NCBI RefSeq assembly: GCF_000341895.1
Contig: NC_020409.1
Span: forward strand, 2,970,001-3,002,000
DNA length: 32,000 nucleotides
Reading direction: 5' to 3'
DNA from: Pseudodesulfovibrio piezophilus C1TLV30
GTDB lineage: Bacteria; Desulfobacterota; Desulfovibrionia; Desulfovibrionales; Desulfovibrionaceae
The notes under the pieces were generated by a model that saw nothing but the letters and a program-made list of their open reading frames with translations, searched no databases and had not been told where the DNA came from. Positions 1 to 31,268 of this stretch are shown one piece after another. Position 1 is the first letter of the stretch; every line of letters starts with the position of its first letter. A program made the position numbers and the translations under genes.

Positions 1-755
1 CGACCGAAAAGGAAACGTTTCATTATGGTGCCGTGGAAAGTTCCTTGCAACTTGAGAATGTTTCCTTCAGCTACCCTGGAACAGACAAGGCCGTTCTTCA
101 TGACATCAATTTGAATCTCAAGCCCGGTGACAAGGTCGGTATTGTCGGCCGAACCGGGGCAGGTAAATCCACCCTCGGCAAACTGATAGTCGGTCTTTAC
201 CAGCCGCTCAGTGGTGCGGTGAAGGTTGGTAATATCGATCTGCGTCAAATGGATGTGGCAGATTTACGGCGTAAGGTGGGATATGTCTCGCAGGATTCCC
301 TGCTTTTTTACGGGACACTCAAGGATAATCTTGCTTTCGGGTTGCCGGAAGCAGATGACCAGACGATCAAGGAGGCGGCTGATATCGCCGGGGTCAATGA
401 TTTCGTCAAGGATCATCCTGCTGGATTCGGCATGATGGTGGGAGAGCGGGGGACTTCGCTGTCAGGTGGGCAACGCCAAGCGGTTTCCGTGGCTCGGGCC
501 ATTTTACCCGATCCTGAAATTCTGATTATGGATGAACCTTCCAGCAATATGGACAATCAGTCGGAATATCGGCTCAAGTCAAAGCTTGAGCCATTTGTCA
601 GGGAGAAGACTCTCATCGTGATTACACATCGTCATTCCATGTTGGACTTGGTGAACAGGCTGGTTATCATGGATAAAGGGCGCATCGTTGTTGATGGGCC
701 GAAGAAGGCTGTTCTCGACGGGTTGCGATCCGGCAAGATCAAGGTCAACATGTGA
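1..755 (+). CDS. Type I secretion ABC transporter ATPase/permease, C-terminal nucleotide-binding domain (5' partial; gene starts upstream of window)
   Basis: Frame 3 is open from the window edge to the TGA at 753-755. Walker A GRTGAGKST, ABC signature LSGGQRQ, Walker B ILIMDEPS, H-loop ITHRH. Followed 8 nt later by a HlyD-family adaptor gene. Confidence 0.9.
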   Translation, partial: TEKETFHYGAVESSLQLENVSFSYPGTDKAVLHDINLNLKPGDKVGIVGRTGAGKSTLGKLIVGLYQPLSGAVKVGNIDLRQMDVADLRRKVGYVSQDSLLFYGTLKDNLAFGLPEADDQTIKEAADIAGVNDFVKDHPAGFGMMVGERGTSLSGGQRQAVSVARAILPDPEILIMDEPSSNMDNQSEYRLKSKLEPFVREKTLIVITHRHSMLDLVNRLVIMDKGRIVVDGPKKAVLDGLRSGKIKVNM

Positions 756-762
756 GGCCGTG

Positions 763-2091
763 ATGAGCAATAAAAAATTTGATAGAGAAACACTGCTGTT
801 CATGTCCGAAGTGGATCAGGCCATGCATGGTTCCGGGCGAAAGCTTGCGTATCTGATGTCTGTTTCCATTGTGTTGATGTTCGTGGGTTTTCTGGTCTGG
901 GCCAAGTTTGCCGTTCTGGATGAAGTGACGCGGGGGTTTGGCAAGATCATTCCATCCCAACGAATTCAGGAAATACAGAATCTCGAAGGCGGCATCCTGA
1001 GCGAAATTTATGTTGATGAAGGCCAGGTGGTCAAAAAAGGCGATGTCTTGTGCCGGTTGCATAATGAGCAGGCTGCCAGTTTTTACCGAGATGCCTTTGC
1101 AAAAGCGCTTGAGCATCGGGCGGCTATTGCTCGGTTGATAGCCATTGTTGAAGGGATTGAACCAGTCTTTGATGATGAATTGGTGGAAAAAGCGCCGCAG
1201 TTGGTGCAGGACCAGCGCCGTATTTATAAAGCCCAATTGGATCAGTTTGATATCGAAGTCAGTTTGCTCCAAGATCAATATGAGCAGAAGAACCAGGAAA
1301 TCAATGAGATGAAAGCGCGCCGCAACCAGCTCGATTCAAGCCTGAAAGTGGCAAAAAAACAGCGGGCTATTGCCAAACCATTGGTCGAGAAACATATTCA
1401 TTCAGAACTGGACTATCTGGCGCTTGAGCAAAAAGTACTGGAGTTGAACGGAGATGTTCAAGCCTTGAATTTAGGTATTCCCCGCGTGGAATCTGCGGCT
1501 CGTGAGGCAAAGGGACGTGTCGAGCAGCGCAAAGCCGAGTTTCGCAGTGCTGCACTGGAAGAAATCAACCAGCGTCGACAGGAACTGAGTTCTATTCGGG
1601 AATCCTTGAGTGCCGGAAGCGACAGAGTGACACGGACCGATGTTCGATCTCCGGTGAGAGGGATTGTCAAAACGATTCACATCAATACCTTGGGTGGTGT
1701 TGTTCAGCCTGGTGAGTCGATCATGGAAGTCGTTCCTTTGGATGACTCCCTGCTCGTCGAAGCCCGTATCAAACCTGCTGATATCGCTTTTCTTCATCCC
1801 AGACAGGCTGCCCAAGTTAAAATTACTGCATATGACTCAGCTATCTACGGTGGACTGGATGGGACTGTCGAGCATATCAGTGCGGATACCATTGCCGATG
1901 AACGAGGCGAAAATTATTATCTTGTGAAGGTCAGAACCTCGAAGAGTGTCATGGAATACCGTGGAGAAAGCCTTCCTATCATTCCGGGCATGACCGCTCA
2001 GGTTGATGTCCTGACCGGCAAGAAGTCTGTTTTGGATTACTTGCTCAAGCCTATTCTCAAAGCCAAACAAAACGCGCTCCGGGAGCGCTGA
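763..2091 (+). CDS. HlyD-family type I secretion periplasmic adaptor (membrane fusion protein)
   Basis: ATG at 763 (MSNKKFDRE) just after the ABC stop. The track start at 688 overlaps the ABC gene and is unlikely. One N-terminal TM (LAYLMSVSIVLMFVGFLVWAKF), a long coiled-coil middle, and a C-terminal GMTAQVDVLTGKKSVLDYLLKPI typical of HlyD/LapC-type MFPs. Confidence 0.9.
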   Translation: MSNKKFDRETLLFMSEVDQAMHGSGRKLAYLMSVSIVLMFVGFLVWAKFAVLDEVTRGFGKIIPSQRIQEIQNLEGGILSEIYVDEGQVVKKGDVLCRLHNEQAASFYRDAFAKALEHRAAIARLIAIVEGIEPVFDDELVEKAPQLVQDQRRIYKAQLDQFDIEVSLLQDQYEQKNQEINEMKARRNQLDSSLKVAKKQRAIAKPLVEKHIHSELDYLALEQKVLELNGDVQALNLGIPRVESAAREAKGRVEQRKAEFRSAALEEINQRRQELSSIRESLSAGSDRVTRTDVRSPVRGIVKTIHINTLGGVVQPGESIMEVVPLDDSLLVEARIKPADIAFLHPRQAAQVKITAYDSAIYGGLDGTVEHISADTIADERGENYYLVKVRTSKSVMEYRGESLPIIPGMTAQVDVLTGKKSVLDYLLKPILKAKQNALRER

Positions 2092-2100
2092 TCGTCGTTG

Positions 2101-3174
2101 ATGACGCGAGCCAGCCTCATACGTCGGATGGCGGCGGTCGCTTTATTGGTGGCCGCCTTCGCTATTTATCCGATGGTTGGTGGGACGACGCAGACGCAAG
2201 GTGCCGGGAACACGGAAAAGGAGGCGGCTGCGGATGATACAGTTGCTGAAAACCCCTCGGTTGAGAGCGGTTCAGAAGAGACTCAGGTTCGGGAAGTAAT
2301 CTCTTCGGGCAGGCAAGAGACACCCCCGAAGAAGGCCGTTTCCACTCAGGCCGTCACAAAAGAGGTGGGTATTCACGCTGACCGGGGTGCCTCAACTCCG
2401 GTCGTTCCAGCATCCAGCCAGGCTGAAGCAGTGTTTTCCTCAACCCCGGTCACTTCCAAAAAAACGTCCCCCGTACTCAAGTCATCTCAACCGACCTCTC
2501 CCGTAGCCAGGAAGGAAAAGGTCCCGGTTGTCCGTTCGGTGCCTGCTCCTCGAAAAGCAGGAAAAGAGACCCCCCAATCAAAGAAAATTCTGCTTTTCGA
2601 CACCATTGAATTTAAGGGAAAAATAAGAAAACTTCCCAAGTGGTCGAGAGTGCTTGCCAAAATGAAGGCTTGGAAAGGATACTTCAAGGATGCGCAGAGC
2701 GCGAAGCTTCCTTCCAGGTCAGGTTGGGTGAAGCTCAGGCGTGATGTCGCGGGGCTTGATCGTATGGGAAGACTCAAAGCGGTCAATAAATTTTTCAATA
2801 AATGGCCGTATCGATTGGATGCGGCGAATTACGGGGCCAGTGATTACTGGGCGACCCCCATGGAGTTCCTCAGAAAATCAGGAGATTGCGAGGATTATTC
2901 CATTGCCAAGTTTTATGCGTTGCAGGAGCTTGGTTTTACTGGTGATTCAATGCGAATAGTGGCTCTCAAGGACCGGATCAGAAATATCGGACACGCAGTT
3001 CTTGTGGTCTATCTTGGCAACGATGCCTATGTGCTGGATAATCAGACCAATATGGTCCTGTCTCATGTCAAATATAAGCATTATGTTCCCCAGTATTCGG
3101 TGAATGAGCACTTTCGATGGATGCATGTTCCCAGGTCGAAGAAGAGTGTGCGTCGAAGCGTGAAGAAAAAATAG
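2101..3174 (+). CDS. LapG-like periplasmic cysteine protease (bacterial transglutaminase-like cysteine proteinase, BTLCP / peptidase C93)
   Basis: Signal peptide MTRASLIRRMAAVALLVAAFAIYP, then a ~135 aa Ser/Thr/Pro/Lys-rich linker. C-terminal BTLCP core: DYWATPMEFLRKSGDCEDYSIAKFYAL (Cys codon 2887-2889), GHAVLVV (His), YVLDN (Asp). Starts 9 nt after the HlyD stop. Confidence 0.85.
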   Translation: MTRASLIRRMAAVALLVAAFAIYPMVGGTTQTQGAGNTEKEAAADDTVAENPSVESGSEETQVREVISSGRQETPPKKAVSTQAVTKEVGIHADRGASTPVVPASSQAEAVFSSTPVTSKKTSPVLKSSQPTSPVARKEKVPVVRSVPAPRKAGKETPQSKKILLFDTIEFKGKIRKLPKWSRVLAKMKAWKGYFKDAQSAKLPSRSGWVKLRRDVAGLDRMGRLKAVNKFFNKWPYRLDAANYGASDYWATPMEFLRKSGDCEDYSIAKFYALQELGFTGDSMRIVALKDRIRNIGHAVLVVYLGNDAYVLDNQTNMVLSHVKYKHYVPQYSVNEHFRWMHVPRSKKSVRRSVKKK

Positions 3175-3210: not shown

Positions 3211-5304
3211 ATGGAGTCAACTATGGCACAGCAGACCAACTCAGAATTACCGATAAGCATCGGCGGAGCAAGGCAGGGGGTTAAGATCACCGTTGTCCTC
3301 GCTTTCGTGCTGGTGATTTCCGCAGGTATCCTGTTCCTGGCGAGCCGGGCAGTGGGCATCAAGAAATCCGAAGGACTGGAGAATCTGGAGAAACGGTATA
3401 AACTTTTGGCTCATGGCCGTGGTGAAATGTTTACGGCCTGGCTGGAGAACCTGTCTCATCAGGGTGACAGGTTGATAAAGTCTGATCTTTTCAGGCTCTA
3501 CGCCGCTGAAGTGGACAGTTTTGATGGTGATCTGGCCGGTATTTTCGGTGCTGTCGCCATTGAAGACGATGATTCTCAGGGAGAGGGAGCCGAACTCGCG
3601 GCACAGTTGCCCATGATGCAGAATATGCTTAGGGAATTTTCTACTTACTCCGGCTTTGTCAATGCCCGGATTCTCAATCGCCATGGGGATGCCTATATAG
3701 CCACGGATGGCTATCTGCCACCAATGTTGCCGGAGCAGTTGGAGCAGGCGACAGAATCCATGAAGAGCGGCAAACCTCGATTCTCTCCCCTTCGCAAGAC
3801 TTTGCAGGGGCTTGAGATGGATGTCTATGTGCCTCTTTATTCTCCTGATGGGGCGGAAAATGAGGAAGCACCAATCGGTGCGCTGATGATGACCCGACAA
3901 GTTTCTGGTAAAATAACGGAGCTGCTTGCGAATTCAGTGCTTTCTTCTCAGGGCGAACGGACTCGTTTGATCCAGAAAGGCGTTGGAGGCTATCGGCAGG
4001 TGACACCGTGGACCACGGATGGCTTTACACCTGTGCATAGTGATATCGCATTGGATGAAAACGGGGATATCCCATTTGGTGAACGGGGAAGCCTCTCCGA
4101 GCCTGAACAGAAAGTTTTTTCACTTGGGCACATGATCCATGGTCCTGATTGGTGGGTTGTTCAGGAAGGTGATTATAGTGAGGCCATGGGACCTCTTGTC
4201 GCTTTCAGAAACAGTGTGACTGTGGTTGCCGGATTGGGAATTCTTACGGCCTTGCTGATAGCGGGCTTGGCTTGGTGGGTTCTTGCCGGAGTTCAAAGCC
4301 AGAGAATAGCAGAAGAATTCAAAGCTCTTGCTGCTCAGATCGACGATCAGAAACGGTTTATCGATTCCATCAATGCCAATATCGATGAATTTATTACTCT
4401 CAAGGACCTTGAGGGGAAATACACATATGTCAATGATGCCTTCGCCGAAGCGGTTGGGCGCAAGAAAGATGAACTGATAGGTATGGATTCCGCTGCTGTT
4501 TTCGGTTTTGACACGGCAAAGCGAGTGGGGGCGGATGATGGAATTGTCTGTCAGACGGGACGCAAGGAAATCATCAATGAGTCATTTTTCCTCCATTCTC
4601 AGCGCTATGAGTTCCAGATTTCCAAGTCTCCCTACATGGACAAGGACAACATGTGTCAGGGGATTGTCGAGGTCTACAGGGATATGACGGAATTTGTGGC
4701 AGTGCAGGAAAAGAACAAGCGTCTGATCAAACGGGCCATGGAGGCCCTCGGTTCGACGATTGAGGCCGCAGACCCGTATTTGGGCGGGCACACCAAGCTG
4801 ATGGCCGGGCTTTCAGTGGAAGTCTCCAAAACCATGCACTTGTCGGAAATGGAGATGGCTGAAATAGAAACAGCCGCCAACCTTTCGCAGATCGGAAAAA
4901 TGTTTGTCGCCAATGAGATCCTGACCAAGCCGGGCAAATTGACTGATGAAGAAATGGCAGCCATGGAAGAGCATGTGGAACATGCGTATCGGATACTCAA
5001 GGATATAGACATCGATGAAGGGGTGTTGAAGGCCATTTATCAGATGAATGAGCGAAATGATGGATCTGGATATCCCAAACAGCTTGAAGCGGAGGATATT
5101 ATTCTGTCTGCTCGCATTCTTTCGGTGCTCAATGTCTTTTGCGCGATGATCCGTCCGCGTTCCTATCGAGGAGCCAAGGCACCCCGCGAAGCTTTGGGAA
5201 TTTTGGCAGCAGATGCGACCAAATTCGATGCTGCTGTTGTCGAAGCATTGGGGAATGTCCTCAAGACTCCTTCGGGTGAGCGGTTACTCGAAGGTCGGGC
5301 ATAG
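3211..5304 (+). CDS. Inner-membrane signalling receptor: TM, ~290 aa periplasmic (Cache-like) domain, TM, coiled coil, PAS, degenerate HD-GYP domain. Functional LapD analogue is proposed.
   Basis: TM1 about aa 24-47 and TM2 about aa 337-362. PAS-like IDEFITLKDLEGKYTYVNDAFAEAVGRKKDELIGM. HD-GYP fold with GGHTKLMAG, KPGKLTDEEM and DGSGYP, but the HD dyad reads SQ (LSQIGK, 4882-4899), HHE reads QMNE, and DxFDA reads NVFCAM. An alternative start at 3223 is possible. Confidence 0.8.
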   Translation: MESTMAQQTNSELPISIGGARQGVKITVVLAFVLVISAGILFLASRAVGIKKSEGLENLEKRYKLLAHGRGEMFTAWLENLSHQGDRLIKSDLFRLYAAEVDSFDGDLAGIFGAVAIEDDDSQGEGAELAAQLPMMQNMLREFSTYSGFVNARILNRHGDAYIATDGYLPPMLPEQLEQATESMKSGKPRFSPLRKTLQGLEMDVYVPLYSPDGAENEEAPIGALMMTRQVSGKITELLANSVLSSQGERTRLIQKGVGGYRQVTPWTTDGFTPVHSDIALDENGDIPFGERGSLSEPEQKVFSLGHMIHGPDWWVVQEGDYSEAMGPLVAFRNSVTVVAGLGILTALLIAGLAWWVLAGVQSQRIAEEFKALAAQIDDQKRFIDSINANIDEFITLKDLEGKYTYVNDAFAEAVGRKKDELIGMDSAAVFGFDTAKRVGADDGIVCQTGRKEIINESFFLHSQRYEFQISKSPYMDKDNMCQGIVEVYRDMTEFVAVQEKNKRLIKRAMEALGSTIEAADPYLGGHTKLMAGLSVEVSKTMHLSEMEMAEIETAANLSQIGKMFVANEILTKPGKLTDEEMAAMEEHVEHAYRILKDIDIDEGVLKAIYQMNERNDGSGYPKQLEAEDIILSARILSVLNVFCAMIRPRSYRGAKAPREALGILAADATKFDAAVVEALGNVLKTPSGERLLEGRA

Positions 5305-5327
5305 CTCGTAATATTCCATCTGGTATG

Positions 5328-5365
5328 AAAAAAGTCCCCGAAGCTCCGTCTTTGGGGGCTTTTTC
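5328..5365. terminator. Bidirectional Rho-independent terminator between the convergent receptor gene and the RND permease gene
   Basis: 10 bp stem GTCCCCGAAG (5334-5343) / CTTTGGGGGC (5350-5359, two G-U pairs), 6 nt loop. A-tract upstream and TTTTT downstream. Confidence 0.7.
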
Positions 5366-5430
5366 TTGAATCGGAGAAAGGGAGCAGAGGACTGCGGTAA
5401 ATTGAGGGCAGATCCTTTTGCCTTGTGTGG

Positions 5431-8400
5431 TCATATGTTTCGCATGAAGTGACCGATTTTCTCGGCGATTGTTTGAACGAAAACATACAAGGCAGGAACA
5501 ACGATGACACCGAGCACTGTTGCCGCGATCATGCCGCCAAAGACCGAGGTGCCCAATGCATGGCGGCTTCCTGAGCCTGCCCCGGCAGCAGTGACCAGCG
5601 GGATGACACCGAGAATAAAGGCGAAGGAGGTCATGAGAATGGGTCTGAAACGAAGCCGTGCCGCCTCCACGGCTGCTTCGGCAATGCTTTTCCCCTGTTC
5701 ATGTTGTTCCTTGGCGAATTCAACGATCAAGATGGCATTTTTGGCTGCAAGACCAATCAGCATCACAAGGCCGATCTGGGCATAGACATTGTTATCCAGC
5801 CCTCGCACCCATTGGGAAGCCATGGCCCCGAAGATGCCGAGGGGAACGCAGAAGATGACGGCAAAAGGAGTTGCCCAGCTTTCATACTGAGCCGCCAGCA
5901 CCAGGAAGACCATGACAATGGCCAGAGTGAATATCATGCCAGCCTGACCACCAGCAGTCTTTTCCTGATAGGCGATCCCGGTCCATTCATATCCATAGCC
6001 GGTGGGAAGAGTCTCATCGGCGGTCTGCTCTATTGCGGCCATGGTCTGGCCAGAACTATATCCGGTGGCCGGTGTGACAGTGATCTCCACAGTGGGGAAA
6101 ATGTTATACCGCTGAATGTATTCCGGCCCGGTCATTCGGGTCGCAGATCCAAGGGTGGTGAGAGGAACCATCTGTCCTTTTCCTGACCGCATGTAGAATT
6201 TACTCAGGTCGTCAATCCTGGTGCGGTAGTTTGATTCCGCCTGGGCCATGACTCGGTATGTTCTGCCATATTTATTGAAATCATTGATGTAATATCCGCC
6301 AAGATAGGTCTGCATGGTGGTGAAGACATCATCGATTGGCACATTGAGCTTTTTGACTTTATCCCTGTCTATTTCAACGTAATACTGCGGGACTCTACTG
6401 GAAAAGGTCGTAAAGGTGCTGGCGACCTGTGGCAGTTTGTTGGATGCACTCATGAAATTGTCAGCCACGGCAGACAGCTCATTGATTGATGCGCCTGAGC
6501 GGTCTTGCAGTTCAAACTGAAGCCCCCCTGTGGAACTCAGTCCTCGAATTGGCGGGGAAGCAAAGGCCATGACACTGGCTTCCTGAATGTTGCCGAAAGC
6601 CTTGCGGGCATGACCGAGGATCGTGTTCAAAGACAATTCGGGAGTTGTTCTCTCGGACCAATCGTCCAGTATGACGAAGACAGCTGAACTATAGGAGGAA
6701 TAGGCTCCTGAGAGCAGACTGAATCCCCCCAGAGTCACATAGCTGTGCACGCCGGGAGCTGTTTTGAGGTAGTCTTCGAGCTTGTGGACTACCTGGTCCG
6801 AGCGTTCCAGTGAGGACGCTTCCGGGAGCATGCAGTTGACGATGAAATAGCCCTGATCTTCATCCGGGACAAAGCCTGTCGGGAGTATCGAGAAAAGGCC
6901 ACTGCATCCAGCCGCGAAAACAGCTGCCGCGACAATGCCCAGAACCGAGCGTTTTACCAGTTTTCCGACGCCATTATTGTAGCGCTCGCTGACTGCATCG
7001 AAAATCAGGTTGAATTTGTCGAAGAACCATCCCAATGGTCCTCTCGCAGGCTTGTAGGGACGCAGGATGAGGGCACTCAGCGCCGGAGACAAGGTCAGGG
7101 CGTTGATGGAAGAGATGATTACCGACACCGAAAGAGTCAGAGCAAACTGTTTGTAGAGCTGCCCGGTGATGCCGCCCATGAAGGCGACGGGAATGAAGAC
7201 CGCTACGAGGACCAGCGTGGAGGCTATGATCGGTCCGGTGACTTCCTGCATGGCTTTTCGAGTTGCGTCTCGTGGGGAGAGTCCTTCGTCATCTATGATG
7301 CGCTGTGTTGCTTCAACCACGACAATGGCATCATCCACGACAATGCCGATAGCGAGGACAAGTCCGAAGAGCGTCAAGGTGTTGATGGAAAAATCCATGA
7401 GTGGGAAGAGCGCAAAGGTGCCGATCAAGGACACCGGAACGCAGACCATCGGAATCACCGTGGTGCGCCAATTCTGGAGAAAAACGAATACCACGATGAA
7501 GACGAGAAACAACGCTTCGATCAGGGTATGCATGACTTCCTCGATAGAGGAATCGACAAAGCGGGTCGTGTCATAGGGGATAGAGTATTCGATACCCTTG
7601 GGGAACATGGTGGTCAGTTCATCCATGGTATGGCGGACACTTTCGGCAACATCGAGGGCATTGGCTCCCGGCAATTGGTAGATCAGCAAAGAGGCCGTAT
7701 CCTGCCCGTTGAGTCGGGCAAAGGTGTAATAGTTTCTTGCGCCCAATTCCACTCGAGCGACATCCTGGATCCTGACAGCGCTGCCATCTTCATTGGCTTT
7801 CAGAATGATTTTTCCAAATTCATCCGGGTCGGTCAGGCGTCCTTTCACGCGAACCGACATCTGGAATTGTTGCCCTTTGGGAGCGGGAGGCATACCGATC
7901 TGCCCGGCCGGAGCCTGCACATTCTGTTCTTCGACAGCTCCGATGACATCGGAAACAGTCAGCCCGTATGTCGCCAACTTGTCAGGGTTGAGCCAGAGGC
8001 GCATGCCATAATCCTTGTCGCCAAAGAGGCTCACATCGCCGACTCCCTCGACACGGCGCAAAGCGTCATAAAGGTTTATTTGTGCGTAGTTATTGAGAAA
8101 AAGCGTGTCGTATTGTGGCAGACTGGATGTCAAATTGATAATCATGACGATGTCAGGCGACTGTTTCTTGACCGAGATCCCTGCGTTGCGGACTTCCTGC
8201 GGAAGCTTGGATGTTGCGAGGTTGACCCTGTTCTGTACATCCACGGTAGCAAGTTCCAGGTCACGGCCAAGCTCAAAGGTGACCTTGAGTGCCATGGAAC
8301 CATCGTTGGAGGAGGTTGACGACATGTACATCATGTCTTGCACACCGTTGACCTGTTCCTCGATGGGTGTTGCCACTGATTGCATGACTGTTTTTGCATC

Positions 8401-8559
8401 GGCACCAGTGTAGCTGGCCTGAACGCTGACGGATGGTGGTGCTATCTGCGGATACTGGGCAACCGGGAGCGAAAAGAGACTCAGTCCTCCAACGAGAAGG
8501 ATGATGATGGCGACCACTGAAGCGAAGATGGGACGGTCTATGAAAAAACGGACAAACAT
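5431..8559 (-). CDS. RND efflux transporter permease (AcrB/HAE1-type, 1042 aa)
   Basis: N-terminus [25 protein letters not shown], 12-TM/two-large-loop layout, conserved [10 protein letters not shown] in TM4. ATG lies 2 nt after the adaptor stop. Confidence 0.92.
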
Positions 8560-8561
8560 GG

Positions 8562-9782
8562 CTAGCCGTCCTTGCGTGTTGTCTCGGTCCTCTCTGTCGT
8601 TTCGCCTTCATGGGCCGAGTCTTTTGGTGTTTCGTCCAGGGGGACAACTTCGGGAGTGACGGTCATACCGGGTCTGACCCGGTTGATTCCATCAACGATG
8701 ATCTGGTCGTCAGCCTTGAGGCCGCTCTTGATGACAACGAGGCCATTGACCTCGAATCCGAGGGTTACCGGCTGATTGACGATCGTTCCTTCGTTGGTCA
8801 CGAGGTACACTGATTTCATCCCCTGGACGTCAAGGATACCTCGAACAGGAATGACAATCGCCTCTTTGGCCATATCCATGAGCACACGTATTTTCCCATA
8901 TTGTCCGGGGCGGAGCAGCCCACTGGGGTTCGGGAATGAGACCCGTATACCCAAGGTGCCTGTCTGGGAATCAATGGCTCGGTCAACCATGCTGAATGAG
9001 CCACTCTGGTCATATTCTTCACCATCGGCCAAGATCAGTTTAATACTGTTTTTGGGAGGTTTCTCCCCGAGTTGGCCTTTTTTGGCCCTGACATATTCAC
9101 TTTCGCTGACGCTGAAGCTGACATAAACCGGGTCCACCGTGGAGATTGTCGCCAGGAGTGTGGATTCATTTTGGCCCACCAAATTACCAATATCAACTTG
9201 AGCTCGGCCAATAACACCGTCTATGGGAGAATATATTTTGGTATAGCCCAATTGGATCCGGGCATTTTCGACCTGTGCGTTACTTTCACGAACCTTTGCC
9301 TGGTAAGTGTCAAAATCTGTTTGATATCCTTCGAACTCATCCTGACTGACCACGCCTTCTTCCAGCAGTTTCTGGAACCGGTCAAAATCCTTTTTTGCCT
9401 TGGCAAGCAGTGCCTGATTGTATTCCAGCCCTGAGAGAGCCACGTTCAAATCTTCCTCAAAAGGTTTGGGGTCGATGATGAAAAGCAGATCACCCTTTTT
9501 GACGTGAAGTCCTTCCTTGAATCGTTTTTCCTGCAAGAATCCGGCGACACGGGCGCGCACATCGACTGAGTCCACTGCGCTGATCTGACCGATAAACTCC
9601 CCCCAGTAAGGCATATCTCTTGTCGTGGCTCTGACCACTTTCATGGAGGGAGCTAATTGTACCTCTGGGGGAGCTTTTTCTTCCCCGCCGTCACATGCTG
9701 TCAGGAGTTGGATGCACAGAAAGATTCCCATGATGAGAGCGGGATAGTGGAATATTTTTTTCTTGGCCATGGTATCCTTCAT
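8562..9782 (-). CDS. RND efflux periplasmic adaptor subunit (AcrA/MFP family lipoprotein)
   Basis: Lipobox LLTAC after a hydrophobic leader. Biotinyl-lipoyl-like [11 protein letters not shown], coiled-coil hairpin, [13 protein letters not shown] motif. Immediately upstream of the RND permease. Confidence 0.9.
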
Positions 9783-11544: not shown

Positions 11545-12342
11545 TTAACGCTTGATATCCAGTTCCCGTTTTTTCGTATAAATGAAGCGGACCATTTCAT
11601 ACTCGAAGGGAGAGCCTGTCGAGTGATATCTGAACGGTGTGTTGGCTCGAAGATTGATGCCCCGCACAAGCTGTTCAGTCAAGCTTCGGGCAGTGGTGTC
11701 ATCAACGCCAATGGCTCTGTAAATGTACTGCATCTCCAGATATTGGAGGAGCGTGTCACCACCATAGCCTGCGGCATCTCTGAGATTGGATGGCCCGATG
11801 ACCGGCATGACGAAGTAGGGACCGTTGCCCACTCCCCAGAAGCCCAGAGTCTGGCCTATGTCTTCCTGCTGGCGGGGTAGGGATTTTGCCTTGGATGCCT
11901 GGTCCCATATACCTGCGACGCCAAAGGTTGTGTTGATCAGGATTCGGGAAATCGTGATGAAAGATTTTTCCAATTTCCCTTGGAGGAGGCAGTTGACCAG
12001 AACAGGCACCTCGTGGAGGTTGTTGATGACATTGCTCACGCCAGTCCGGACCGGGGAGGGAAGAACCAGTCGGTAGGCTTTCGTCGCAGGAATCAGAACA
12101 TATTCATCCACATTGGCATTGAATTCATATAAATTCCGATTCATCGGCTCCCATGGATCGTAAACATCCAGGAACCTGAGCGATCGGGAATCTTCAGTGG
12201 GCCAGCGGTGAACCTGTGTCTTGAAACCTGTGGGTTGCAGATTCGACATGGGGTCAATGGTCGTCATGGTTTTGGGACCACATGCCCCGAGCAGGAGCAT
12301 CACCGCAAATATGAAGGCAAGATGGGGCTTGAGGTGTTTCAT
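11545..12342 (-). CDS. mlaA: MlaA/VacJ family outer-membrane lipoprotein
   Basis: Lipobox LLLGACG. DPWEPMNRNLYEFN, NLHEVPVLVNCLLQGK, INTTFGVAGIWD and GPYFVMPVIGPSNLRD are typical MlaA/VacJ blocks. Confidence 0.88.
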   Translation of the reverse strand: MKHLKPHLAFIFAVMLLLGACGPKTMTTIDPMSNLQPTGFKTQVHRWPTEDSRSLRFLDVYDPWEPMNRNLYEFNANVDEYVLIPATKAYRLVLPSPVRTGVSNVINNLHEVPVLVNCLLQGKLEKSFITISRILINTTFGVAGIWDQASKAKSLPRQQEDIGQTLGFWGVGNGPYFVMPVIGPSNLRDAAGYGGDTLLQYLEMQYIYRAIGVDDTTARSLTEQLVRGINLRANTPFRYHSTGSPFEYEMVRFIYTKKRELDIKR

Positions 12343-13607
12343 GGGCGCACCATCCGAACCATGGTTTCGACAAAGGCAGGATGTCTCATATTGCCGCAGT
12401 GTCCACCGGTGGGGAATAGAAAGGCCCGCGAGCCGAAAGTATTTTCGATGAACCGTAAATCATCCCTGTCAAGAATGACATCATCCCGATTGCCGATAAG
12501 GACTATCTTGTCGGTCGTCTTGAGGTATTCGCTGATATCCTTGAGACTGCACTGTCGCAACACTGTCCTCCTGTCCAGTCCCGGCTTCATGTATTGGATG
12601 AACGGGAGCAGGTATTCATCCAGATACTCTTCAAATCGAACGTCAAATGCCTGCTGGGCATACGGCAGTAATGATGTGCCCGTTTTGAGCGGATAGTCCT
12701 GAGGGGGAACGAGGTATTCCGCCCGTAGACAGACATCTGAGGCAAAGATCATGGAAGCGGATGAGGTGCGGAAAGCGCCTCCGATAAGTGTCTTGAGGTC
12801 TTTGTCCCGGAAATTTACACGGGTCACCATGCGGTAGAGAAAGTCATCATCGAGGTCGGTAACATCAGCGGTTCTGTAGTATTCTGAAAAGCGGTCAATG
12901 ACTTTTTCGATCTGCTCCCGGACCGTTGTATCGCCGAGGTTTTCGTCTGTCAGCCATGCATCAAGCCGTGTGACCGAACTGTAGAGGGACACGGGCGGAT
13001 TGATCATGAGCACTTTCTGAAAGCCAAAATCCTTCAGCGTGGAATCCGCATGGGCTATGAAGGCGGCATGCAGAGCGCCGAGACTGTACCCGGCCATGGA
13101 GTATCCGGTTATGTCACATTCCTTTTCCACATCTGTCTTGATCCACTGCATGACCTTGTATAAATCTGCTACGTCGTATGGGACATAGCCGGGAACCCCG
13201 TGCTCGGATGCACTGACAATGAAATTCATATGGGTTGGAGACGACAAAGCCACCACATGAAATCCGGCCTCATGGAAGACTTGAGTCAGGAATGCCATTT
13301 TCAGAGAATTGTGCTCGGCTCCGGTTCCGGCAATGAGAAAAAGTAGTGGGGCAGCCGTGTCTTGCAGGGCCGTTGTATAATACATGTCGCGGCTGTACGA
13401 GAAGACATTCGGAACCTGACGGCCTTCTATTCGGAGGGACCGGATTTCCGGTTTGACCGGATTGCTCACTCTATAGCGACTCTCTGGCGGTGTGCCATAG
13501 ACAGTGGCTTTGTACGGATTGTCAAATGGGTAATCATAGTCCGCCGCTCCAGCCGAGAGTATCGGAAGGAAAAGGACGAAAAAGGTAAAAGCAAGGGTGA
13601 ATCGCAT
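12339..13607 (-). CDS. Secreted alpha/beta-fold serine hydrolase (lipase/esterase-like), function unknown
   Basis: Start chosen at MRFTLAFTFFVLFLPILSAGA/ADY (signal peptide). Oxyanion-region LLFLIAGTG, nucleophile elbow GYSLG, acid DDVILD, His in TGGHCG. Its stop overlaps the mlaA ATG (ATGA, 12339-12342). Confidence 0.7.
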   Translation of the reverse strand: MRFTLAFTFFVLFLPILSAGAADYDYPFDNPYKATVYGTPPESRYRVSNPVKPEIRSLRIEGRQVPNVFSYSRDMYYTTALQDTAAPLLFLIAGTGAEHNSLKMAFLTQVFHEAGFHVVALSSPTHMNFIVSASEHGVPGYVPYDVADLYKVMQWIKTDVEKECDITGYSMAGYSLGALHAAFIAHADSTLKDFGFQKVLMINPPVSLYSSVTRLDAWLTDENLGDTTVREQIEKVIDRFSEYYRTADVTDLDDDFLYRMVTRVNFRDKDLKTLIGGAFRTSSASMIFASDVCLRAEYLVPPQDYPLKTGTSLLPYAQQAFDVRFEEYLDEYLLPFIQYMKPGLDRRTVLRQCSLKDISEYLKTTDKIVLIGNRDDVILDRDDLRFIENTFGSRAFLFPTGGHCGNMRHPAFVETMVRMVRP

Positions 13608-13916
13608 AAGCCTGCAAGGGAAAAAGATTGGATGGTCGCAAAAATATACGGAATAGACCCTATCGTGAACAGAAAAGGGATGCAATGGGTATCGGGGCGC
13701 TGGGGAAAGCCCGGTGTGTTGTGCCGGGTGTCGGAAGTGAGGAATCTTTCCCATGCCGCTCCTGTTTTGGAGAGAGCCCCAATGTCCACGACTTCCTCTT
13801 TCCCCATAGTATATGTATTAGACAACCTCTCTCAAATGCCTTACAAGCTTCCCCACACGCCGTGATTCGGCGTCTTTCCCCATGCCCGGAGAAAAATTTC
13901 ACTCACAATGAGAATT

Positions 13917-29614: not shown

Positions 29615-29705
29615 GTATTCTCTCCGCTCATGGTTCTAGCGGGTTTTGGCATCGCTGAAAACCTGAAATACGTGACTGTTTGGTCGAATCTTCGATGAAA
29701 GTGTG

Positions 29706-29734
29706 TTGACATACATGATTCTTCATGTAGCGTT
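29706..29734 (+). promoter_or_regulatory. Possible sigma-70 promoter with an embedded 6 bp inverted repeat, upstream of the lipoprotein gene
   Basis: TTGACA (29706-29711), 16 nt spacer, TAGCGT. ACATGA (29713-29718) / TCATGT (29723-29728) lies within the spacer. Confidence 0.3.
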
Positions 29735-29765
29735 GAATATATCCATAAAAGCATTGGGGGATGCC

Positions 29766-31268
29766 ATGAAAGCAGTCAGACGAATCGTGTGTGTCGTTGT
29801 TCTCGCGTGCTGTCTTGGTGCGTGTACCAAAGATAAATATGACAGGAGCATGGAGGATGTCGCTCGGAATTGGTGCATGACGATCCGGGCCTCTCAGGTC
29901 ATCCCGATCTATCCTCTGGAGGAGAGTATCCGGCCCGGTGACGTCTTTCTGGTCGGAGCGCCTCATGCAAAGGAAGTGACGCTGTATAGAGAGAAAGGAT
30001 TTTTGCCCATGGATACCCATCTGCATCGAATCAGCGGATTGGAGAAGGATTATGTGGATTTCTACGGGGAAGGATATTTGAATGAGTACCCGGCTCCTCC
30101 TAAAAAAGAGGTTTCTGTGGCGAATGCTTCTTCGGGACAGTCCTCAAACTCTTCGTTACCCTTGAGAGACTGCGCGAACTCTTCTGACGAATTTGGTCGG
30201 CTTATGTGTCTCATCGAAAAACAGAACGGCGCAAAGGGCGGTCGTTCAATGCAATGGCCTCTCGCCGTTTTTCCTTCCTATACGGTCAAGGTGGGGACTG
30301 ATGCTTCGCTGGGAGCGGGGCTTTCCCTCAAGGGGATACCCCTTGGGTTGTCCTTCCTGCATGCATCTCAAGCTTTGGCCATGGTGACTATCAAGGACAG
30401 CTATAGTGTGGGGCTTCCCGTGGATGTGCTCTACCCGGAAGTGACAGCTTGGGCAGCGCGGCCGGAGGCAAGCGAATTGCTTGATGAATATGTCGATGGC
30501 CATGAAAACGTCCTCTACGTTCGGCTTATCACAAAGGTCTTTTTGGCGCAGCAGTTCGACATAGCTCTTCTCTCAAACTCCCAGACTGGCGGCAGGGTAA
30601 ACGTCAATACAGAATCAGCCGAGGGAAACGCGACTGCCGACAATGCAACCATGACCGAGCGCTTGACAGAGCTTGTCATGCAAAACCTCGTGACCGCAGC
30701 GGCCGACCAGATGCCCAAGGGCGAGGTGGCTTTCATGTCCGGTTCATCCAGTGCCGTGAGCCTGCGAGAGACGTTGGATCGTCCTGTTGTTCTCGGGTAT
30801 CACGCTGTTGATATACCGGTTTTTGACGGCGGGAGGCTTGGAGCACCGGTTGCCACACAAAGCTTTCTCCTTGACCGGGCAACGCCCTTGGCCTCGGCCA
30901 GGGAAATCAGGGAAAACCGGTTGAGCATCGTGGATCTGAATCGCGAAGTAAATTCTCTATCCAGGACGTGCGCTGTCTTTTTCATGCATATTATGGCGGA
31001 TAGAAGTCCTGATCGTTATGGCTCAATCGTATCTTTACTCGATCGATTGGTCGCAGAAGCTCAAGAAGGATCAGTGACTGAGAGTTTCTTTGACGCGACA
31101 AAAAAAGATTTCGATGACGTTACCGATGACTGGATTAACGAGGCTGCCAATGCATCAACGGAAGAAAGCGACCGGATTTTACGATCGATCAAGGCGGAAT
31201 ACGTGCGAGCGCTCGGGATGGCCCGGCGTCGATGCGAGAGCATGAAGAGCAGGAGGAATTATGAGTGA
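29766..31268 (+). CDS. Uncharacterised ~500 aa lipoprotein: N-terminal ~400 aa beta-rich domain with a gasdermin-N-like sequence pattern, C-terminal ~110 aa helical acidic/basic region
   Basis: MKAVRRIVCVVVLACCLGAC lipoprotein signal (Cys20 codon 29823-29825). No recognisable catalytic motifs. See the finding for the block pattern. The track start at 29703 adds 21 aa without a signal-peptide rationale. Confidence 0.6.
   Translation: MKAVRRIVCVVVLACCLGACTKDKYDRSMEDVARNWCMTIRASQVIPIYPLEESIRPGDVFLVGAPHAKEVTLYREKGFLPMDTHLHRISGLEKDYVDFYGEGYLNEYPAPPKKEVSVANASSGQSSNSSLPLRDCANSSDEFGRLMCLIEKQNGAKGGRSMQWPLAVFPSYTVKVGTDASLGAGLSLKGIPLGLSFLHASQALAMVTIKDSYSVGLPVDVLYPEVTAWAARPEASELLDEYVDGHENVLYVRLITKVFLAQQFDIALLSNSQTGGRVNVNTESAEGNATADNATMTERLTELVMQNLVTAAADQMPKGEVAFMSGSSSAVSLRETLDRPVVLGYHAVDIPVFDGGRLGAPVATQSFLLDRATPLASAREIRENRLSIVDLNREVNSLSRTCAVFFMHIMADRSPDRYGSIVSLLDRLVAEAQEGSVTESFFDATKKDFDDVTDDWINEAANASTEESDRILRSIKAEYVRALGMARRRCESMKSRRNYE

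Follow-up and report, generated by a model that had tools for sequence, protein, structure and literature searches.

A degenerate HD-GYP protein encoded next to a LapG-like protease in Pseudodesulfovibrio piezophilus: a probable ortholog of the c-di-GMP receptor DvhD

The locus described here raises the question of whether a membrane protein with an HD-GYP domain, in which most of the expected metal ligands are replaced, is still an enzyme or has become a receptor of its nucleotide. The window, i.e. the whole stretch of DNA that was analysed, comprises 32,000 nucleotides of the P. piezophilus C1TLV30 chromosome, and the gene in question occupies positions 3211..5304 of its forward (+) strand, as do all features below unless stated otherwise. 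The open reading frame encodes 697 amino acids, with Pfam matches to PAS_4 and HD_5 and PDB matches to 9rc2, 9rc0 and 9rbz; an alternative ATG at 3223 would give a product of 693 amino acids, as called in metagenomes. We refer to this product as the receptor. Its closest named relatives are found in Pseudodesulfovibrio spp. (70-76% identity). A search of NCBIfam returned no dedicated family, and assignment to the best match, a NosR-type response-regulator phosphodiesterase, was rejected because its score of 96 bits falls short of the cutoff, which is 400.

Pfam, PDB matches, hydropathy and an AF2 model searched with Foldseek give the layout TM–periplasmic dCache–TM–PAS–HD-GYP. The first transmembrane helix (3274..3363, approximately residues 22-51) was located by a Kyte-Doolittle scan and corresponds to a long helix that the AF2 model places at 20-89; the second (4204..4299, approximately residues 332-363) was found by the hydropathy scan and corresponds to the modelled helix 322-388. 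These two segments bracket a periplasmic domain of 280 amino acids, whose dCache-type part (3382..4170, residues 58-320) aligns with 9rc2 in phmmer (E 3.7e-55) and resembles the periplasmic structure of DvhD with a target-normalised Foldseek TM-score of 0.88. The Pfam scan of the receptor sequence gave no match for this domain, and the periplasmic domain of DvhD is likewise without a Pfam match at the sequence level (PMC13090378). On the cytoplasmic side, a PAS domain (4366..4698, residues 386-496; PAS_4, E 4e-10) aligns with 9rc0 (E 6.8e-93) and precedes the degenerate HD-GYP domain, the predicted c-di-GMP binding module (4756..5238), which matches 9rbz and had been recognised from the letters alone; the profile PF13487 (HD_5) recovers it at residues 516-676 with E 2.1e-37. 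The AF2 model, which supports the fold only, has a pLDDT of 80, and its Foldseek ranks 1-6 are taken by 9rc0, 9rc2 and 9rbz, with the active HD-GYP enzymes 4mcw and 4r8z ranking below these DvhD structures.

When the domain is aligned by phmmer to active HD-GYP structures, only H527 and H588 are kept at the metal-ligand positions and six of the eight are replaced, in agreement with the loss of most ligands claimed by the sequence-only reading. The position of the Glu ligand (DPETQNH in PmGH) is held by Y523. The retained first histidine, H527, lies in GGHT and the second, H588, in EEHVEH. In alignments with 5z7c, 4mcw and 9rbz, the place of the HD dyad is taken by S559-Q560 (4885..4890), within the LSQIGK motif at 4882-4899 (L558-K563), exactly as had been read. 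The HH pair had been read as QM; its loss stands, but the register was one residue off, as the aligned pair is M612-N613 (5044..5049) and not Q611-M612, and neither pair supplies a metal ligand at that position. The DGSGYP loop (5059..5076, D617-P622) is intact, its G, Y and P being invariant in 117 homologs. In the segment NVFCAMIRPRSYR (5131..5169), which begins with NVFCAM (N641-M646, 5131-5148), N641 stands in place of the last metal-binding Asp, as also proposed earlier, and the same segment carries M646, R650, Y652 and R653, which are residues of the canonical site in DvhD. The register against V-cGAP3 (5z7c) pairs llHDIGK with nlSQIGK, aHHEKLDGTGYP with qMNERNDGSGYP and aDIFDAL with lNVFCAM, and that against PmGH (4mcw) is identical.

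Could such a signature simply reflect a decayed enzyme? In the set used for residue conservation (117 homologs, 35-79% identity), position 559 is S in 113 and position 560 is Q in all 117, while M occurs at 612 in 116 and N at 613 in 109; altogether, the series Y, H, S, Q, H, M, N, N and the GYP motif are invariant or nearly so. Since the replacement residues are themselves invariant across homologs, we rejected the pseudogene reading, and, judged from this conservation, the degenerate signature is neither chance nor decay.

We propose that the receptor is an ortholog of DvhD (DVU1020/BfsD) of Nitratidesulfovibrio (Desulfovibrio) vulgaris Hildenborough, and thus a catalytically dead HD-GYP protein acting as an inner-membrane c-di-GMP receptor that serves sulfate-reducing Desulfobacterota as a functional counterpart of LapD; we put the probability of this reading at roughly 0.85. 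Both proteins share the domain layout given above (9rbz, 9rc0 and 9rc2 for DvhD), their lengths are similar (697 versus 701 amino acids), and the numbering of the C-terminal domain coincides. In DvhD the same residues (Y, SQ, MN, N) stand in for the metal ligands, and the GYP loop is common to both. The HD-GYP structure 9rbz aligns with the receptor in phmmer without gaps (E 7e-57, 48% identity), whereas the identities reported by Foldseek are 42% for the PAS/HD-GYP part and 36% for the periplasmic domain; this moderate identity to DvhD counts to some extent against the proposed reading. Among nine residues known in DvhD from canonical c-di-GMP contacts or mutagenesis, seven are identical (Y523, L577, Y621, M646, R650, Y652 and R653); K582 is Met in the receptor, with a Lys at 576 instead, and E668 is Asp. 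What was observed directly is the register of the sequence, the domain layout, the way the degenerate site is conserved among homologs, and the synteny discussed below. A published list of DvhDG neighbourhoods, Supplementary Data 1, covers about 18 Pseudodesulfovibrio species (PMC13090378) and includes the P. piezophilus C1TLV30 ortholog under WP_015416033.1 (PMC13090378).

The properties of DvhD itself are well described. In a structure at 1.8 Å, c-di-GMP occupies the degenerate HD-GYP site (PMC13090378, Nat Commun 2026), in which the HH pair has changed to Met and Asn, no metal density is seen and no hydrolysis occurred with any ion tried (PMC13090378). The dissociation constant for c-di-GMP was given as 99 nM in that work (PMC13090378, Nat Commun 2026) and as 322 nM before (PMC10990149, PNAS 2024). 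The tyrosine of the GYP loop, Y621 in the receptor, hydrogen-bonds the phosphodiester of c-di-GMP, and point mutations at contacting residues, with R650, Y652/R653 and M646 among the positions mutated, abolish the response to the nucleotide (PMC13090378). Binding is accompanied by c-di-GMP-dependent dimerisation and splaying of the stalk (PMC13090378), and in a reconstituted P. fluorescens system the LapG-like, adhesin-releasing protease DvhG was under c-di-GMP-dependent control of DvhD (PMC10990149). By analogy with this characterised ortholog, the receptor of P. piezophilus is inferred to bind c-di-GMP without hydrolysing it, to signal from the inside outwards and to control the protease. 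The view of the sequence-only reading that the domain belongs to a ligand-sensing pseudo-enzyme parallel to LapD is thus supported by homology to a c-di-GMP receptor that does not hydrolyse its ligand; this view appears to have been right, but had already been published for the family in 2024-2026.

The mechanism would then involve the following steps. With Y523, S559-Q560, M612-N613 and N641 standing for E, HD, HH and D, the metal centre would be lost, and because of this loss the receptor would be unable to hydrolyse the nucleotide. The seven identical residues listed above, including Y621 of the GYP loop, would still form the pocket in which c-di-GMP is clamped. A cytoplasmic change would be relayed via the transmembrane helices to the periplasmic dCache domain, and this domain may restrain the co-encoded DvhG-like BTLCP protease (2098..3174).

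The physiological ligand might instead be 3'3'-cGAMP, or cGAMP together with c-di-GMP. For DvhD, a Kd of about 0.5 µM was measured with 3'3'-cGAMP, and either nucleotide stabilises the PAS/HD-GYP fragment to the same extent; Hypr GGDEF synthases of cGAMP occur in some Deltaproteobacteria (PMC13090378). Moreover, the receptor has Asp in place of E668, the DvhD residue that reads the amino group of guanine, and this position varies among the 117 homologs (E in 64, D in 16, G in 12, S in 6 and A in 6). However, c-di-GMP is the tighter ligand of DvhD and the one that drives its function in cells (PMC13090378, PMC10990149), and the remaining base-clamping residues are the same in both proteins; we therefore consider this alternative improbable.

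In Xanthomonas RpfG, the GYP motif mediates protein-protein contacts and binds GGDEF proteins. An HD-GYP domain of the receptor serving similarly as a nucleotide-independent scaffold or output module, with the PAS or dCache domains, which are typical sensor modules, as the true inputs, is nevertheless quite unlikely: the residues conserved in the family, Y621 of the GYP loop included, are those contacting c-di-GMP in 9rbz, their mutation in DvhD removes the c-di-GMP response (PMC13090378), and an input through PAS or dCache could coexist with nucleotide sensing. That the receptor is a phosphodiesterase with a non-canonical or reduced metal site, based for instance on H527 and H588, is less credible still, for although both histidines are invariant in homologs and the family goes by 'HD domain-containing phosphohydrolase' in databases, such names are automatic, domain-based labels, six of the eight ligand positions hold residues from which no di- or tri-nuclear centre is built, and DvhD, with identical residues, has neither metal density nor hydrolytic activity (PMC13090378). 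The practical gain of our analysis is one of annotation, as the phosphohydrolase label is contradicted by the biochemistry of DvhD.

The genes around the receptor fit the proposed function. The gene order in the window is T1SS ABC–HlyD–BTLCP protease–receptor. The T1SS ABC permease/ATPase is represented by its 3' part (1..755; Pfam ABC_tran), as it is cut by the window start; the full gene (5122-7533 in locus L001) encodes 803 amino acids with a C39-like domain. It is followed by a T1SS membrane-fusion protein of the HlyD/AprE type (688..2091; Pfam HlyD_3), for which the gene call in L001 places the start at 763, and by the DvhG/LapG-like periplasmic cysteine protease at the coordinates given above (BTLCP, Peptidase_C93; PF06035, E 2.5e-17). 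The protease has an N-terminal hydrophobic segment and a linker rich in S, T, P, A and K, and carries the motifs GDCED from residue 262 (Cys264), GHAVL at 298 (His299) and VLDNQ at 312 (Asp314); in phmmer alignments with the LapG structures 4u65 (E 1e-19) and 4fgo (E 2e-16) the catalytic Cys, His and Asp are matched. Among related genome loci, the receptor gene is immediately preceded by a BTLCP gene in 71 of 72, and all four genes keep their order in 59 of 60. The T1SS ABC, HlyD and BTLCP protease partners are thus common to the operons of DvhD and the receptor. Unlike in the case of DvhD, genes for an adhesin and a TolC-like protein are not adjacent: none was found in the window or in the 10 kb that precede it, and no ORF of the window exceeds 1042 amino acids. 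This absence counts somewhat against the proposed reading. On the 3' side of the receptor gene there is a terminator-like hairpin with a T-run (5344..5367), beyond which an RND pump gene (5431-8559) is convergent with the receptor gene.

The likeness to LapD of Pseudomonas fluorescens, a degenerate GGDEF-EAL receptor of c-di-GMP that controls LapG, lies in the common logic of a dead enzyme acting as a receptor in the inner membrane, of inside-out signalling, and of control over a BTLCP protease in the periplasm, by which a T1SS adhesin is released. This parallel is functional rather than loose, because the receptor gene adjoins genes for a BTLCP/LapG-like protease and a T1SS. The nucleotide module of LapD is, however, an EAL domain and not HD-GYP, the periplasmic domain of the receptor is dCache-like, and the Pfam scan of the receptor gave no HAMP, GGDEF, EAL or LapD/MoxY domain. 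True homology was rejected, as the two proteins have no Pfam domains in common; on this domain comparison, LapD is an analogue of the receptor and not a member of its family. With active HD-GYP phosphodiesterases, PmGH (4mcw/4mdz), V-cGAP3 (5z7c) and PA4781 (4r8z), the receptor shares the fold, PF13487, the GYP loop, H527 and H588, but these enzymes keep the HD, HH, Glu and Asp ligands, whose replacement in the receptor means that no catalysis would be expected of it. Other degenerate HD-GYP proteins, for example PA2572 of P. aeruginosa (YN-GYP) and Bd1817 of Bdellovibrio (without GYP), are presumed to have a regulatory role; they show other substitutions and response-regulator or stand-alone architectures, and are not known to be tied to a BTLCP/T1SS adhesin system. 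The present locus places the LapD-like use of a dead enzyme as a receptor on an HD-GYP domain, with protease and secretion partners, in a (Pseudo)desulfovibrio-type genome, which is of relevance to the way sulfate reducers form biofilms and corrode metal.

The sole remaining novelty of the receptor, and a modest one, is its variant bridging site. In DvhD a second c-di-GMP site, the bridging one, involves K520, P567 and R569, and the substitution P567T raised nucleotide-independent dimerisation (PMC13090378); by residue mapping, these positions are A, A and E in the receptor. P567 is kept in 76 of the 117 homologs, A567 is shared with only one, and the exact K-P-R triad occurs in the set in D. 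vulgaris DvhD alone, so that the bridging site looks like a lineage-specific elaboration which does not define the family. These differences, together with those at K582 and E668, imply that affinity, stoichiometry and cooperativity may differ from those of DvhD. It is conceivable, though we hold this tentatively and rather doubt it, that the bridging site that locks the D. vulgaris dimer has been lost (K520A, P567A, R569E) and the phosphate-contacting Lys shifted from 582 to 576, leaving a single-site (1:1) receptor of different affinity, cooperativity or basal dimerisation. If this were true, the bridging site would be a lineage-specific tuning element outside the core switch. Position 582 is Met in 66 of the 117 homologs, and Lys or Arg is present at 576 in 63 of the 67 sequences with Met at 582, a count that is confounded by phylogeny and gives only a hint of co-variation between the two positions.

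The open reading frame at 3211..5304 (+) encodes a protein of 697 residues with a degenerate HD-GYP domain in its C-terminal part. Pfam places a PAS domain at residues 386-496 and HD_5 (HD-GYP) at residues 516-676 (window 4756-5238, E 2.1e-37), and a hydropathy scan gives transmembrane (TM) segments at residues ~22-51 and ~332-363, on both sides of a periplasmic domain. The top matches among PDB sequences were non-enzymes, namely 9rbz (HD-GYP domain; phmmer E 7e-57, 198 residues ungapped, 48% identity), 9rc0 (PAS/HD-GYP fragment; E 6.8e-93) and 9rc2 (periplasmic domain, against residues 58-320; E 3.7e-55), all released in March 2026 and all representing DvhD (DVU1020), the c-di-GMP membrane receptor of Desulfovibrio vulgaris Hildenborough. 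[quoted passage not shown] Because the PDB sequence matches, the TM hydropathy and the AF2/Foldseek results agree, the protein is, as judged from sequence and model, a full-length DvhD ortholog of the architecture TM–dCache–TM–PAS–HD-GYP. Two in-frame ATGs lie four codons apart, at 3211 and 3223; metagenome assemblies call the second, which gives 693 residues.

The register of the HD-GYP domain was set by phmmer alignment to the PDB sequences of two active enzymes, V-cGAP3 (5z7c, E 1e-25) and PmGH (4mcw, E 1e-15). In both alignments S559-Q560 occupies the position of the HD dyad and M612-N613 that of the HH pair, while in the D(I/V)FDAL block the Asp is replaced by N641 and the second Asp by C644; Y523 stands opposite the Glu of PmGH 'DPETQNH'. 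Two His ligands are kept, H527 ('GGHT') and H588 ('EEHVEH'). Thus, six of the eight positions of the di- or tri-nuclear metal centre, which follow the PmGH ligand list, bear non-ligating residues. The degeneracy proposed in the sequence-only reading, with the first His retained and the HD dyad (as SQ) and the last Asp lost, therefore stands on a proper alignment to active enzymes. That reading located LSQIGK (4882-4899), DGSGYP (5059-5076) and NVFCAM (5131-5148) correctly, and its span of 4732-5190 took in most of the domain. Loss of the HH pair was also recognized, but assigned to Q611-M612, one residue off, which has no consequence.

A set of 117 full-length homologs (35-79% identity), drawn from a search of 5.8 billion proteins, was aligned at these positions. 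Q560, N641 and both kept ligands, H527 and H588, are invariant, as are G, Y and P at 620-622 and the canonical-site residues R650 and R653 (117/117 each). Nearly so are M612 (116/117), Y523 (115/117; the Glu ligand position, a ribose contact in DvhD), M646 (114/117), S559 (113/117), Y652 (112/117), the latter and M646 also belonging to the canonical site, and N613 (109/117). Decay of the domain is ruled out, since the substituted residues are themselves near-invariant; to judge from this alignment, the metal-site substitutions are a selected signature. Pseudodesulfovibrio supplies the nearest named homologs (70-76% identity); remoter ones belong to other Desulfovibrionales, Desulfuromonadales, Desulfobacterales and a few Alphaproteobacteria-like MAGs. 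Public names for the family include 'metal-dependent phosphohydrolase with PAS/PAC sensor', 'PAS domain-containing protein' and 'HD domain-containing phosphohydrolase', of which the last is misleading and could be corrected; no NCBIfam model for the family was found, the best match scoring 96 bits where the cutoff is 400.

[quoted passage not shown] (PNAS 2024; PMC10990149), who found that the cytoplasmic fragment binds c-di-GMP with a Kd of 322 nM and, by reconstitution in P. fluorescens ΔlapDG, that DvhD controls the LapG-like protease DvhG in a c-di-GMP-dependent manner. In the structures solved by Font et al. (Nat Commun 2026; PMC13090378), HD is SQ, HH is changed to Met and Asn, and the canonical pocket holds c-di-GMP and no metal. 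Residual catalysis, for which the two remaining His ligands might speak, is unlikely, as DvhD gave zero hydrolysis with every ion tested (PMC13090378). It is also unlikely that cGAMP is the true ligand: DvhD does bind 3'3'-cGAMP, but with a Kd of 501 nM versus 99 nM for c-di-GMP (PMC13090378). Nor is the domain likely to be a nucleotide-independent scaffold, given its conserved nucleotide pocket.

This analysis itself establishes the fold and how the domains are ordered, the degeneracy of the metal site, the conservation of the nucleotide pocket and the linkage to protease and T1SS genes. As in DvhD, c-di-GMP would bind the metal-free pocket and escape hydrolysis, and binding would rearrange the HD-GYP dimer and stalk. 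In DvhD, c-di-GMP makes the HD-GYP domains dimerise, with a third c-di-GMP bridging the dimer, and the stalk helices splay, suggesting inside-out signalling toward the periplasmic dCache domain (PMC13090378). In the protein at hand, the signal would cross the membrane by way of the TM helices and reach the dCache domain, which would restrain the protease; when c-di-GMP is low, the protease would cut the retention module of an adhesin, releasing the adhesin from the surface. The ligand-sensing pseudo-enzyme suggested from the sequence is supported by the strong homology to the experimentally characterised DvhD, and corresponds to what was later demonstrated for that ortholog. An inactive c-di-GMP receptor HD-GYP of the DvhD type is an already known feature and of low interest as such.

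The sole departure from DvhD worth an experiment concerns the bridging site together with residues 576 and 582. As 9rc0 begins at residue 374 and the alignment is ungapped, DvhD numbering applies directly within the domain. At the canonical site Y523, L577, Y621 (the Y of GYP), M646, R650, Y652 and R653 are the same as in DvhD, whereas K582 is replaced by Met and E668 by Asp; at the bridging site K520, P567 and R569 are replaced by Ala, Ala and Glu. The bridging site is less conserved than the metal-site and canonical positions: P567 occurs in 76 of the 117 homologs, the exact K-P-R triad in D. vulgaris DvhD only, and A567 in just one sequence besides ours. Asp occupies position 567 in 35 of 37 more distant homologs (~40% identity), the few named members being Desulfuromonadales and Desulfomicrobium. 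Residue 582 (codon 4954-4956, + in the window) is a Lys in DvhD, where it contacts a phosphate, and 63 of 67 sequences with Met582 have Lys or Arg at 576 (4936-4938, +), a pattern confounded by phylogeny; the basic residue at 576 may be a relocated phosphate contact. From A520/A567/E569 and M582/K576 taken together, a receptor with 1:1 binding and possibly lower cooperativity would be expected.

The receptor gene is preceded on its own strand by the 3' end of a gene for a T1SS ABC permease/ATPase (to 755; the complete protein has 803 aa and includes a C39-like domain), a HlyD/AprE membrane-fusion protein gene (to 2091) and, directly before it, a BTLCP/Peptidase_C93 protease gene (2098..3174), which is the DVU1017-DVU1020 order of the D. 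vulgaris Dvh operon (PMC10990149). The protease aligns with the LapG structures 4u65 and 4fgo, with Cys (GDCED), His (GHAVL) and Asp (VLDN) matched. Its N-terminus has a hydrophobic segment (~5-31) and a linker of ~135 residues (~35-170) rich in S/V/A/T/K/P, followed by the BTLCP domain. The segment may be either a signal peptide that is cleaved or an anchor in the membrane, as in D. vulgaris DvhG; the SignalP call was likewise ambiguous for one Pseudodesulfovibrio ortholog (PMC13090378).

Among 80 related loci from species-representative genomes, counting those with enough flank, the BTLCP gene was directly upstream of the receptor in 71/72, and the ABC–HlyD–BTLCP–receptor order was kept in 59/60; DvhDG neighbourhoods of ~18 Pseudodesulfovibrio species are already in Supplementary Data 1 of Font et al. 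(PMC13090378). The single exception, locus L047 from an uncultured deltaproteobacterial MAG, is an orphan copy with the SQ/MN/N signature kept. This DvhD homolog (L047 10001-11986, 39% identity; SQ, MN and N-FCAM intact) lacks BTLCP, HlyD and ABC genes within 10 kb, and may act with a different partner.

No adhesin or TolC-like gene was found in the window or over 10 kb upstream (locus L001, 1-10000), so the gene for the substrate adhesin must lie in some other part of the genome; D. vulgaris DVU1545 sets a precedent, being a second adhesin encoded away from the operon. In D. vulgaris the adhesin gene DVU1012 and a TolC-like gene share the operon of the T1SS, protease and receptor genes, whereas the upstream neighbours here encode a zinc alcohol dehydrogenase, a CofD-family protein and a sigma-54 activator. 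The receptor gene is followed by a weak terminator-like hairpin (5344-5367), and convergent with that gene are genes for an AcrB-type RND pump (1042 aa) and a membrane-fusion protein (406 aa; together 5431-9782, -), beside which no outer-membrane factor gene was seen. Two ORFs, at 29703-31268 (+, 521 aa) and 12339-13754 (-, 470 aa), gave no Pfam match (E 1e-3 and 1e-5); the one at 12339-13754 is directly upstream of a MlaA lipoprotein gene, with a slight overlap.
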